Assembly: GCA_028688145.1 (NCBI GenBank)
Contig: JAQTYU010000001.1
Coordinates: 266,284 to 330,283 of the forward strand
Reading direction: 5' to 3'
Length of the DNA: 64,000 nt
Origin: Thiotrichaceae bacterium
GTDB taxonomy: Bacteria > Pseudomonadota > Gammaproteobacteria > Beggiatoales > Beggiatoaceae
The notes under the pieces are model-generated. The model searched no databases. It was not told the origin of the DNA and saw only the letters and a program-made list of their open reading frames with translations. The stretch's first letter is position 1. Each line of letters starts with the position of its first letter. A program made the translations under genes and the position numbers. Positions 1 to 42,070 of this stretch are shown here, one piece after another.

Positions 1-144
1 GTTCTGAAAGTATTCAGGACAGTCGTCGTGCTCCACCACCCCCATCACAAGCCGTGATAGTTGCCATTTTAATAACCCTACTCCCATTTCTTGTGTGGCT
101 CATCATACTTTTCATGAATCAAGTTAGAGACTGGTGGTAATTAT

Positions 145-951
145 ATGCTTAAGCATGAAGCAGCACAGAATGCGGGTAATTACACCTTACACGAGCAGGG
201 AGTGAACGTTGAAATTATTCAAATTTTGAGACGCGCAGCAGATGGCATAACTAAACCCTTTATTTGTAAAGGAGAAAATAGTCTTATTTATGTGGTAAAA
301 GGCATTGGCGCAGGAAAACGTAGCCTAATTTGCGAGTGGATTGCAGGGTGTTTAGCACAACAGTTACAGTTGCCGATTGCACCATTCTGTATTGTGGATG
401 TTCCCGAAGAATTATTAGCAAATAATGTTTATGAAGACTCCAAATATTTAGGCATCGGTTTGGCATTTGGATCATTAGAACAAGACCGTGTATCCAAAGT
501 TAAACCAGAAGATATTCAAACAATACCTGAAACATTACAACAAAAAATCTTTGCGTTTGATTGGTGGATTCAGAACATGGATCGTACTTTAACAGAGCAA
601 GGGGGAAATCCTAATCTATTATGGAAGCTTAACATAAACAGTGAATTTGAAAGCAGATTAGTCATGATTGATCACAATTTAGCATTTGATAAACAATTTC
701 ATAAGCAGGACTTTATTAAATCACATATCTTTAAAGCACAAGGGCTTGCGTTACTCTCAGATAAAGCCCTACAAAATGATTACACTCAGCTTTTTTTAAA
801 CGCATTACAATATTGGAATGAGATTTGTACTGGTATTCCCCCCGAATGGTGGTTTAGTGACGCTGAACAAACTGTTTCCGTGGATTTTGACTTAAAAGTC
901 ACCTATGATAAGCTCATGACTTGCCAAGAAAAAATATTTTGGAGTAAATAA
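145..951 (+). CDS. HipA-family (short HipA_2-like) putative Ser/Thr protein kinase
   Basis: 268 aa. C-terminal motifs IQNMDRTLTEQGGNPNLLW and MIDHNLAFD resemble the HipA catalytic-loop (NxDxHxxN) and DxG regions. AT-rich. Stop overlaps the next start as ATGA. Confidence 0.5.
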   Translation: MLKHEAAQNAGNYTLHEQGVNVEIIQILRRAADGITKPFICKGENSLIYVVKGIGAGKRSLICEWIAGCLAQQLQLPIAPFCIVDVPEELLANNVYEDSKYLGIGLAFGSLEQDRVSKVKPEDIQTIPETLQQKIFAFDWWIQNMDRTLTEQGGNPNLLWKLNINSEFESRLVMIDHNLAFDKQFHKQDFIKSHIFKAQGLALLSDKALQNDYTQLFLNALQYWNEICTGIPPEWWFSDAEQTVSVDFDLKVTYDKLMTCQEKIFWSK

Positions 952-1655
952 TGAAAAGAGTTTTGTGTCAGTATGCTGTGGTGCGCTTCATACCTATCAT
1001 GGAGACAGAGGAGTTTATTAATATTGGCATCGTATTATTAGCCCCACAAAAGCATTTTTTTGGTTTTAAGTTGACAGCAAAGATAGCCCCTTTTATCCAC
1101 AAAGAAGCTCGTGATGCCTATCTGTTTGCGAAAGATGAGGTTTTGAAAAAAGAATTTATCAGGGTTAGGCAATTACTGGAAAAATATCATTTAGAAAATC
1201 ATTCTGAAAAAGAATATATAGATTTTTCAAAAATTATCTTTGGTGAGCTTATTCGTCCACAAGAAACAGCCATTCGTTTTAGTGAACAAAAGGTATTACT
1301 GAGCGATAACGTAGAAAATGCTTTAGAACAGCTATTTACTTCTTATGTCGATCGCAATTTTGTAGAAAACGCTGTCGTTTCACGTCGAGTTGGGTATGAC
1401 ATTCGGCATCAGATAGCACAGTGGTATGATGTTGTCTCTTCATATGATCAAGAAGTGGTTCGTATGAAACTCAACATCGCACAGTGGTATGATGTTGCCC
1501 CGTCATGTAATTTTGATAATGGGAAAATAGTTATTGACACTCAGCATCAGACAACACAGGGGTGTAGCGAACACCACACCCCCAACCATTGCAGCCTGAT
1601 TAATGACCCGGAATCATCCAGCTCAAGTAGTATGCTTGAACATAAGCAAGCGTAG
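951..1655 (+). CDS. DUF3037 domain protein with an unusual C-terminal extension
   Basis: N-terminus YAVVRFIPIMETEEFINIGIVLL matches the DUF3037 signature (Y..R..P....E..NIGV.L). Translationally coupled (ATGA) to the upstream HipA-like gene. The C-terminal ~70 aa contain a tandem IAQWYDV repeat and a Ser-run and run into a REP element. Confidence 0.55.
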   Translation: MKRVLCQYAVVRFIPIMETEEFINIGIVLLAPQKHFFGFKLTAKIAPFIHKEARDAYLFAKDEVLKKEFIRVRQLLEKYHLENHSEKEYIDFSKIIFGELIRPQETAIRFSEQKVLLSDNVENALEQLFTSYVDRNFVENAVVSRRVGYDIRHQIAQWYDVVSSYDQEVVRMKLNIAQWYDVAPSCNFDNGKIVIDTQHQTTQGCSEHHTPNHCSLINDPESSSSSSMLEHKQA

Positions 1656-1745
1656 GGTGTATAAGCATCGCGCCATACACCTTACGATTTGAAAAGTTAT
1701 GCAGCATCACAAAGGTGTATGGCGGCTGCGCCTTATACACCCTAC
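1652..1745. repeat. composite palindromic repeat (TAGGGTGTATNAGC...GCGNCATACACCTTA, two inverted units), family F4
   Basis: 1652-1685 and 1712-1745 are hairpin units and inverted copies of each other. A near-identical composite lies at 41994-42070, just after the mutL stop. Confidence 0.7.
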
Positions 1746-2986: not shown

Positions 2987-3660
2987 TTATACAAACACTT
3001 TGCTTAAGAGGGAGGACTGGCTAATCAGACCCATCAGGGTTTCAACCCCTGCACACATTTTCATGATTCCCTCAGTCACAGAACTTACCCCTGCAAACCT
3101 CAATAAGTTTAACCCAATACTCCGTAAAATACCCATCACCAAGGCTGAATTCGGTTTAGAGATTGCGCAGCTATCTTCTTTCAAAACAATATCCTTTACC
3201 CAGTGTAAGTTGTTCTCTATCCGCCTTGTATCCACTTTCCAAACATATAAGCACTCGCCTTCTCACTACTGAACTATCACTCTTGACCTGCTTTTTCCCA
3301 TGTGAACCTTCGCGATGGACTAAAACCAAACTACGTAAACCTGCTTATTTTTTACTATCAACTCTAGTGTTTTTGTGGAGTGCGTCTAAAGTAAATATAG
3401 CTTTCTCTACTTCAAACAAACTTAGTAAGGCTTGAACTTGATGAATCTCGCTCTGTTTGTTGTTTTCCAAAGTCCCAACCCGTAACATCAGATGAGTTTG
3501 ATGCCCAAAGAAACTCACTAAACTTGCAAAGTTCTGTTGCGAATCATGACAATGACTGACGGTGCTATTAATGCTTTTTCCATCAATGGCGATAAGCTCT
3601 GGCTTATAATGATTCAACATCCATTGATTAAATGCCTCACATAACTCTTGAACATCAAGA
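2987..3660 (-). mobile_element. degenerate ISAs1-family IS copy (transposase pseudogene, frameshifted)
   Basis: ORF fragments 3345-3620 (LIAIDGKSINSTVSHCHD...) and 2987-3235 (ENNLHWVKDIVLKEDSCAISK...) match the ISAs1/H-repeat transposase middle and C-terminus. Split over several frames. About 80% identical to a second copy at 49890-50760. Confidence 0.7.
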
Positions 3661-4057: not shown

Positions 4058-5023
4058 ATGGCACGACAAACAGTCACCTTATCGCTTATTGAAGATTCTC
4101 CTGTTGAACTTCCTGAAGAAGTGCAACGCACTGGCTTAGAAACCAGCAAAATTTTATGGCAATCGGCAAAGGCGGTTGCACAACAAGAAGTGGATAAAAT
4201 TAAACAACGTTATCAACAGCAAGAAGCTGACATTTTAAAACAACAGCAAATTGCGGTGGATCAATTGGCACAAGCCAAAGCGGAAATCCTTACGCTGCGG
4301 GCAACGGTGGATAATCTGACACGCGAAAATAAATCCTTGCATGTGGATAATGACCGTCAAACCGCAGAACTGCGCAGTGCACACGATCACGTTGCCCGTT
4401 TGGAAGAAAAACAATTACAACACGAACATGAGATTAAAAATCTCAGTGAAGAACTGGGACGCTCTCGTGAAAGCAATGAACAAGTCAGCAAAAAAGTTTT
4501 TGAAATCAATCGTCAAGCAGAGCAAGATCAAAATAGTTTGCGCGAATTACAAGCGGAAGCCAGCTTAAACCACAGTACCCGTGAGCGTCTGGAAAAGAGC
4601 TTGAAACTTGCCTTGGATGAATCTGAACAAGCCTCTAAACAACTGCGTGTCGAACAAAGTAAAGTGGCAGTTGCAGAAGCGATTACCCTAGAATTGCGTG
4701 AACTTAGTAAGCGTTTAGATGTTGAAATCAAAACTTTGCGCGAAGAAAAACATGAAGTGAAAGCTTCATTAGAAGCTGAAATTAAACTGCGTGCCGAGCT
4801 TGAAAAGAAACTCGCGATTCAAAACACCCGCAGTGATGGACAAGAAGCCGCGCATCGCGAGATGTTGAACAAATTGGAGCAAGATTTAAATGCCACCAAG
4901 GCAGAAACCACGATGTTGCGCACGCGCTTAATTAAATCCGAAGGCGCGTTGGAGCGCGAAAAGAAAGCGATTGAACGGCTTGAAACCAAGCTGGTGGCAT
5001 CTGGCAGCGGTGCGAAGTTTTAA
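4058..5023 (+). CDS. coiled-coil protein (KfrA-like / hypothetical)
   Basis: 321 aa. Highly charged heptad-rich sequence (E/K/Q/L rich) throughout, no catalytic motifs. Stop abuts the rsmI GTG start. Confidence 0.45.
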   Translation: MARQTVTLSLIEDSPVELPEEVQRTGLETSKILWQSAKAVAQQEVDKIKQRYQQQEADILKQQQIAVDQLAQAKAEILTLRATVDNLTRENKSLHVDNDRQTAELRSAHDHVARLEEKQLQHEHEIKNLSEELGRSRESNEQVSKKVFEINRQAEQDQNSLRELQAEASLNHSTRERLEKSLKLALDESEQASKQLRVEQSKVAVAEAITLELRELSKRLDVEIKTLREEKHEVKASLEAEIKLRAELEKKLAIQNTRSDGQEAAHREMLNKLEQDLNATKAETTMLRTRLIKSEGALEREKKAIERLETKLVASGSGAKF

Positions 5024-41993: not shown

Positions 41994-42070
41994 CTAGGGT
42001 GTATGAGCGTAGCGTCATACACCTTAAAATAGCCATTCTGGTGCACGGCGGCTACGCCTTATGCTTAGGG
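41994..42070. repeat. family F4 composite palindromic repeat (second copy)
   Basis: CCTAGGGTGTATGAGCGTAGCGTCATACACCTTA...GGCGGCTACGCCTTATGCTTAGGG parallels 1652-1745. Confidence 0.7.

Follow-up and report, generated by a model that had tools for sequence, protein, structure and literature searches.

Near the start of a 64,000-nucleotide (nt) stretch of Thiotrichaceae bacterium DNA (assembly GCA_028688145.1, contig JAQTYU010000001.1, positions 266,284 to 330,283; this whole stretch is called the window, and coordinates are counted from its first letter) lie two adjacent genes on the forward strand, the first encoding a kinase of the HipA_2 family and the second (951..1655, 234 amino acids, aa) a protein that opens with a DUF3037 domain (Table 1). 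An original prediction, made from the letters of the stretch, had proposed a HipA-like kinase gene overlapping this DUF3037 open reading frame (ORF) within 145-1655, and both ORFs (145..951 and 951..1655) are real, matching Pfam families PF20613 and PF11236, respectively. The DUF3037 protein is identical to one encoded in a Thiotrichaceae metagenome-assembled genome. The junction between them reads ...AGT AAA TAATG AAA..., with the kinase stop at 949-951 and the partner ATG at 951-953, so that the genes overlap by a single nucleotide and not by the ATGA that had been read there. Such a junction is consistent with translational coupling of the kinase and the DUF3037 gene.

The kinase assignment extends over nearly the whole protein. 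Residues 24-267 of the first ORF match the full-length Pfam HipA_2 family (PF20613, E=7e-85), the protein also matches the PADLOC profile PDC-M66A (E=1.2e-18), and of 683 homologues found at E<=1e-3 all 120 listed carry PF20613. In a 45-sequence alignment K52, D146-R147, N155, N157 and D176-H177-N178 are invariant, while S60 is nearly so. By alignment and motif the ATP-binding Lys, the catalytic Asp, the Asn and the metal-binding Asp are all kept, and the catalytic Asp and Asn, the residues by which the HipA-like assignment was to be checked, are thus present and invariant. The motifs can be set against those of HipA, with YVVK52 equivalent to HIIK181, WWIQNMD146R...N157 to WLIGATD309GHAKN314 and VMID176HN to PFYD332. 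The upstream gene product is accordingly best described as a HipA_2 kinase predicted to be catalytically competent. The position of its start is uncertain, because the first 19 residues read from ATG145 have no counterpart in the homologues, whose alignments begin at about residue 20 of the 268-aa ORF, and are modelled with low confidence (predicted local distance difference test, pLDDT, below 60). An alternative start at GTG202 gives a protein of 249 aa, typical of a family whose listed matches are mostly 241-249 aa long (typically 244 aa), and the true start could be this GTG instead of ATG145.

The AlphaFold2 model of the kinase (pLDDT 90; predicted template modelling score, pTM, 0.88) has PI4KII-alpha as its top fold match in the PDB (E=1e-5, Foldseek), followed by the Golgi casein kinase Fam20C, H. 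pylori CtkA, Legionella HipT (8ezs, E=4e-3) and Shewanella HipA (4pu5, E=4.5e-3), with template modelling (TM) scores of about 0.4-0.5. As modelled, the kinase belongs to the PI3/4-kinase-like/HipA/CtkA corner of the protein-kinase-like fold. Kinship at the level of sequence, whether with E. coli HipA or with kinases of solved structure, was considered and rejected, the searches having come back empty: Pfam HipA_C and HipA_N gave no match to the kinase at E<=1, phmmer against the PDB returned neither HipA nor any other sequence match, and hhalign against E. coli HipA gave a probability of 1%. NCBIfam held no meaningful match for the kinase or for the DUF3037 protein.

The linkage of the two families was surveyed in a scan of one genome per species, which yielded 437 loci with a DUF3037 relative; 80 of these were retrieved, and their neighbouring genes were called with hidden Markov models built in this analysis. 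A HipA_2 kinase lies directly upstream on the same strand at 73 of the 80 loci, in agreement with the enrichment of DUF3037 genes beside HipA-like kinases that had been anticipated. At nearly all of these 73 loci the kinase stop and the DUF3037 start share 4 nt or 1 nt, in most cases as ATGA (-4). Among the seven loci that lack a kinase, one is at a contig edge and six appear to be true orphans (L009 and L021 were inspected). Full-length DUF3037 genes of ~280 aa without an upstream HipA_2 gene were seen at L009 (3995-4846) and L021 (4001-4840) and also at L014, L026 and L031, in Marinobacter and Candidatus Thiodiazotropha; such orphan genes could be anti-toxin decoys or have another partner.

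The second protein departs from its family in architecture. The Pfam DUF3037 match (PF11236, E=5e-19) is limited to aa 8-133, and the match to PADLOC PDC-M66B (E=8.7e-14) covers only positions 5-135 of the 281 in that profile; the AlphaFold2 model has a pLDDT of ~90 over aa 1-137. Structure comparison of this model found no solved structural relative of DUF3037 and no similarity to HipB or HipS, and Pfam gave no helix-turn-helix (HTH) family match. In PHROGs the two proteins of the window match phrog_3162 and phrog_5137, both families without an assigned function. The typical partner is ~275-285 aa long with two domains (236 of 262 retrieved homologues have 260-299 aa), and the canonical partner P0006 spans positions 2-267 of the PDC-M66B profile, whereas a profile of 232 canonical partners aligns to the window protein only up to ~168-169. 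The protein is shorter than the family norm, yet ~85 aa longer than its closest relatives, which stop just past DUF3037: P0003, encoded at locus L002 in a different sample (148 aa), and the proteins of Beggiatoa leptomitoformis (153 aa) and B. alba (142 aa), each with an intact kinase upstream. Like the window protein, these relatives cover the PDC-M66B profile in its N-terminal half only. The original prediction had the ORF running about 100 aa past the usual domain. This holds relative to the Pfam domain, but the full-length partners of the family have ~275-280 aa and two domains, and the loss of the canonical C-domain, absent from that account, is the larger structural fact. A search of every frame across ~5-6 kb at the window locus, L002, L084 (B. 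leptomitoformis) and L085 turned up no fragment of the C-domain, and a split C-domain encoded elsewhere nearby was rejected on this ground.

Both genes are under purifying selection. Comparison of the window, L002 and the two Beggiatoa genes by the Nei-Gojobori method put the ratio of nonsynonymous to synonymous substitution rates (dN/dS) at 0.10-0.21 in the short antitoxin and at 0.19-0.29 in the kinase, with dS up to ~2. Because of these values we conclude that the short form of the antitoxin is not decay. Clean short antitoxins are also found outside this clade, in Halochromatium together with a kinase (L010, L025) and as one orphan in Marinobacter (L008). In Halochromatium the short form arose independently, and there it is still paired with an intact kinase. 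One canonical DUF3037-family gene (L034) carries a frameshift.

The 85-codon tail of the window protein is missing from L002, B. leptomitoformis and B. alba, and a shorter form of it is present at L003 (protein P0002), also from a different sample. In the DNA alignment the L002 gene ends ...GTT GCG TAA, whereas the window reads TAT at the stop position, and the distance from this position to the palindrome described below is 12 nt in L002 and ~190-255 nt in the window. The peptide IAQWYDV occurs twice in the antitoxin (aa 155-161 and 176-182), as had been noticed, but the tandem duplication proposed for it is not a clean one: the match between the copies is ungapped over ~36 nt, with a gapped stretch leftward, and over their other 27 nt the 63-nt units show no relationship. 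The 19-nt direct repeats reported at 1417-1435 and 1480-1498 exist as exact 19-mers within the 36-nt repeat, one base away at 1416-1434 and 1479-1497. In the L003 tail the repeat is present once, as a hybrid copy; this tail lacks 25 codons relative to the window, in frame, and its ORF stops two codons earlier at its own TAA. Remodelling of the C-terminus through the repeat is therefore part of the history, copy number being two here and one in L003, but the repeat explains only 25 of the ~85 extra residues; as read from the alignment, what chiefly sets the window gene apart is that the ancestral stop is missing and that additional sequence precedes the REP-like element, and the repeat change is secondary to this stop loss or insertion.

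Most of aa 138-234 has a pLDDT below 50 in the AlphaFold2 model, and the tail is predicted to be disordered and of low complexity. With a GC content of 44%, it resembles the host genome and differs from the remainder of the module (36%). The probability that an 85-codon frame stays open by chance is ~0.006, while dN/dS of the tail against L003 is ~0.43 from 12 substitutions, a value that at most hints at some constraint and is not distinguishable from weak or no constraint. Two sources of the tail were tried and rejected. A degraded canonical C-domain was suggested by BLASTP alignments with 276-278-aa homologues that ran to ~aa 190, yet the tail alone scores -3 bits against the profile of 232 canonical partners (hmmsearch) and nothing was found in six frames of 1381-1760. 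As a copy of a repeated element the tail gave nothing beyond 12-mers when compared with the 64-kb window (blastn-short). Further variants in repeat number were sought by an exact metagenome scan for GCACAGTGGTATGATGTTG, which returned two unrelated chance matches only.

The tail runs through a stretch of serine codons into a palindrome resembling repetitive extragenic palindromic (REP) elements, and in this the original prediction was accurate. The nested palindrome, with outer arms GTAGGGTGTATAAG and inner arms CGCCATACACCTT, has a folding energy of -51.7 kcal/mol (z = -6.0 relative to shuffled sequences) and probably forms a hairpin at the 3' end of the transcript; the TAG stop of the ORF (1653-1655) sits in its first arm. 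The same element (GTAGGGTGTATAAGCATCGCGCCAT) lies 12 nt past the stop of the short gene in L002 (4056-4089), and one degenerate second copy occurs in the window at ~41994-42065, 40 kb off. The palindrome probably represents a genome-wide repeat family, because the independent Logan contig L001 breaks off 23 nt past the DUF3037 stop, just inside it. A hairpin with a 12-bp stem (GGGGTGTAGCGAACACCACACCCC) is also found inside the coding tail, at 1557-1584, and has a GGGTGTA core in common with the REP-like element, a resemblance that hints at an origin of part of the tail from repeat-element DNA.

Table 1. Features of the kinase/DUF3037 locus, in coordinates of the window.
Feature	Coordinates	Strand	Basis
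HipA_2-family Ser/Thr kinase, putative toxin ('HipA' of HipAD)	145..951	+	268-aa ORF, PF20613
TAATG stop/start junction, 1-nt overlap	949..953	+	read from sequence
DUF3037 domain, aa 1-137 of the putative antitoxin, equivalent to the HipD N-terminal domain	951..1361	+	PF11236
Lineage-specific 85-codon C-terminal tail of the DUF3037 ORF	1398..1652	+	comparison with relatives
Direct repeat copy 1, encodes IAQWYDV	1413..1448	+	repeat search, family D1
Direct repeat copy 2, 63 nt downstream of copy 1 and 83% identical to it	1476..1511	+	family D1
Run of six serine codons in the tail	1614..1631	+	sequence and translation; run also in P0002
REP-like nested palindrome	1652..1745		inverted repeats I1 and I9

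Pairs of this kind have recently been characterised. Modules of the HipAD kind protected E. coli from phages in work published in 2025-26 (PMC12548924, PMC13092281), and the earlier view of the DUF3037 partner as a protein of unassigned function is thereby outdated. DS-6, an E. coli prophage system that comprises DS-6A (249 aa, HipA_2) and DS-6B (275 aa; DefensePredictor supplement, PMC13092281), was validated by DefensePredictor, with loss of defence in a catalytic mutant of the kinase and binding between A and B predicted by AlphaFold3 at a reported interface score (ipTM) above 0.7 (PMC13092281). According to the citation in that paper it was renamed HipAD after Brenes & Laub 2025. The record of Escherichia phage PhiR5_1 (PV340545.1; L088 2462-4035) already labels the DS-6 genes 'HipA toxin' and 'HipD antitoxin'. 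The phage is lambdoid, and its hipA-hipD pair is placed directly downstream of cI and before kil/gam, which is the position of rexAB in lambda and a typical slot for defence genes expressed from a prophage.

The window kinase shares 33% identity over 216 aa with DS-6A and the HipA of PhiR5_1 (E=1e-36, BLASTP), and the DUF3037 domain 29% identity over aa 6-134 with DS-6B/HipD (E=2e-16). Both systems place a HipA_2 kinase gene first and a DUF3037 gene that overlaps it second, with one strand carrying both, and the motifs N-x-D-R-T-L-T-x-x-G-G-N-x-N and I-D-H-N-L are identical in the two kinases. The systems differ in the antitoxin, DS-6B having DUF3037 at aa 7-125 and a C-domain with a weak DUF1829-like region at aa 163-260, whereas the window protein is without this C-domain and carries the unrelated 85-aa tail. 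They differ further in the overlap (TAATG in the window, ATGA in HipAD) and in location, the window pair being chromosomal among housekeeping genes and HipAD lying beside cI in a lambdoid prophage. HipAD has been assayed against phage, while the window pair is known from its genes.

A second point of comparison is the HipA-like/DUF3037 pair typed as PDC-M66 beside Retron-Sda1, which defends alone against phage Bas51 and in which deletion of the kinase abolishes defence and deletion of the DUF3037 gene is toxic (PMC12548924). The adjacent genes of the window match both PDC-M66A and PDC-M66B and form a stand-alone two-gene unit, although the antitoxin covers only the N-terminal half of the PDC-M66B profile. 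Neither a retron reverse transcriptase nor a non-coding RNA is found near the window pair, and the Sda1 DUF3037 protein's C-terminal region, which resembles a retron DNA-binding protein, is absent from the window protein. With HipBA and HipBST the pair has in common the two-gene logic of toxin and antitoxin and a kinase toxin of the same PI3/4-kinase-like/HipA/CtkA fold class, in which the equivalent Lys, Asp, Asn and Asp are recognised by motif. The similarity to HipBA is at the level of the fold only, the window kinase having ~250 aa without the N-terminal subdomains of HipA, and the top structural match of the window kinase, PI4KII-alpha, sets it apart from both systems. The antitoxin lies downstream and has no HTH, whereas HipB is an upstream HTH antitoxin; the gene upstream of the window kinase encodes a DUF805 membrane protein. 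Unlike HipS, which resembles an N-terminal subdomain of HipA, the window antitoxin lacks any structural likeness to that subdomain.

The surroundings of the pair were read from the window and from L001, an independent Logan assembly in which both genes recur, with 10 kb of DNA upstream of them. The DUF805 gene (window 1-140; L001 9301-9996) ends 4 nt before ATG145, and the genes farther upstream in L001 are of housekeeping type. Downstream in the window lie a convergent agmatine-deiminase-type gene (PAD_porph) and then RsmI, Psd, GroEL and others. The DUF805 gene was rejected as a third component, since L002 and the two Beggiatoa genomes have other genes upstream. The neighbours of the module differ in each genome examined, and its GC content is 33-37.5% against 41-49% in the flanks (window, L002, L084), which together are consistent with a mobile two-gene unit acquired horizontally. 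Relatives of the pair occur on 20 records of a plasmid collection and on phages.

We consider the locus likely to be a horizontally acquired, chromosomal kinase toxin-antitoxin (TA) module of the HipAD type (DS-6/PADLOC PDC-M66). That the pair might be a TA or phage-defence unit had been proposed from the outset, and the proposal now draws on the PDC-M66A/B matches, the retained catalytic residues, the linkage of the families and the assayed homologues (PMC12548924, PMC13092281). In such a module the HipA_2 kinase would be the toxin, and the translationally coupled DUF3037 protein would act as a HipD-like antitoxin that neutralises the kinase by direct binding through its DUF3037 domain. Upon relief of neutralisation, which in characterised relatives accompanies phage infection, the kinase would phosphorylate an essential host target, leading to growth arrest and abortive infection. 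The target may be a translation factor, for instance an aminoacyl-tRNA synthetase, a suggestion that draws solely on the analogy to HipA and HipT. The antitoxin of the Beggiatoa/Thiotrichaceae lineage would have been cut to its DUF3037 domain with loss of the ~140-aa canonical C-domain. The window copy would later have gained its 85-aa tail by reading through the ancestral stop position into sequence of host-like GC content; the tail would then have been enlarged by an imperfect internal duplication, its stop codon now coming from the REP-like palindrome. The locus is an architectural variant of a known system, with a minimal HipD and a young tail, and is otherwise an ordinary solitary module in an uncultured sulfur bacterium.

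Several points weigh against a HipAD-type module. The assayed homologues all carry a two-domain HipD, unlike the short antitoxin of the window. Profile comparison detects no relationship between the kinase and E. coli HipA, and the analogy to the targets of HipA is therefore weak. The locus lies among housekeeping genes and in no defence island. No sigma-70-like promoter was found on the + strand of window 1-144, and the pair may be transcribed by read-through with the DUF805 gene and not from an autoregulated TA promoter; with no such site upstream and the DUF805 gene ending right before the kinase, loss of the C-domain in the short-antitoxin version may have gone together with loss of autoregulation. 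Finally, the existence of kinase-less DUF3037 genes in some genomes suggests that the DUF3037 domain may also act independently.

The alternative that fares best is an ordinary addiction or stress-response TA pair with no role in phage defence in this host, its short antitoxin then being without any contribution that the C-domain may make to phage sensing. The housekeeping context accords with this, as do the absence from the window antitoxin of a domain found in all tested defensive versions and a low GC content compatible with a selfish mobile module. However, two independent studies found members of these protein families to be defensive (PMC12548924, PMC13092281), PADLOC lists the pair as a phage-defence candidate and many defence systems are solitary, so that we regard a pure addiction or stress-response role as possible but rather unlikely.

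A different question is whether the tail does anything. It could be a new regulatory appendage that renders the minimal antitoxin labile, acting as a degron for proteases or as a flexible sensor, with repeat number tuning its length. Type II antitoxins generally carry disordered, protease-sensitive regions; here the 85-codon frame is open against the odds, and the 75-nt indel that separates it from L003 preserves the frame, with the ORF open in both samples. Yet the tail is restricted to two samples that are close relatives, neither Beggiatoa nor the nearest sister, L002, has it, it has neither homologues nor predicted structure, its dN/dS falls within what weak or no constraint would give, and the scan for the repeat turned up chance matches only. 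A function for the tail is on these grounds unlikely. Decay of the whole pair, in which C-domain loss and read-through into junk would mark a remnant no longer functional, might be argued from the missing C-domain, the disordered and more loosely constrained tail, the stop codon donated by a repeat element and frameshifted or truncated relatives elsewhere such as L034, but it is highly improbable given that both genes are intact with all catalytic residues kept, that purifying selection has acted over four genomes diverged to dS above 1 (dN/dS 0.10-0.29), that an active toxin would kill its host once the antitoxin had failed, and that the independent short form of Halochromatium has an intact kinase beside it.

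Returning to the HipAD-type reading, the system has been validated only very recently, and the short antitoxins bear on the role of each HipD domain and on how the kinase is neutralised. Truncated antitoxins held under purifying selection amount to a natural domain dissection of HipD: if a HipD of 142-153 aa (or residues 1-137) neutralises the kinase, DUF3037 would be the inhibitory module and the C-domain would be assigned to regulation or sensing. A bolder and, in our estimate, doubtful extension is that the minimal HipD, kept as DUF3037 alone with its kinase across Beggiatoaceae and independently in Halochromatium, makes DUF3037 an autonomous neutralising module and the canonical C-domain a dispensable regulatory or sensor add-on, while the tail seen here would have been born de novo from non-coding or host DNA with a stop from a repeat element and a repeat number that varies between populations. 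The tail itself offers a small, datable case of coding extension by stop loss beside a REP-like element.

Three further observations concern the flanks. In B. leptomitoformis (L084 6516-7872) the module is preceded by mfd, and after it come two genes for HTH_Rpn_C-domain proteins and next a SNF2 helicase gene, surroundings that could be a small mobile or defence neighbourhood. On the - strand of the window at 2987-3620, two short ORFs of 82 and 91 aa look like transposase fragments (no Pfam match at E<=0.001), presumably resembling the C-termini of the ISAs1 family, and possibly represent an insertion sequence remnant near the module. Directly upstream of rsmI, at 4058-5023, a 321-aa ORF with no Pfam match has heptad-like Glu/Lys/Leu repeats and probably encodes a coiled coil.

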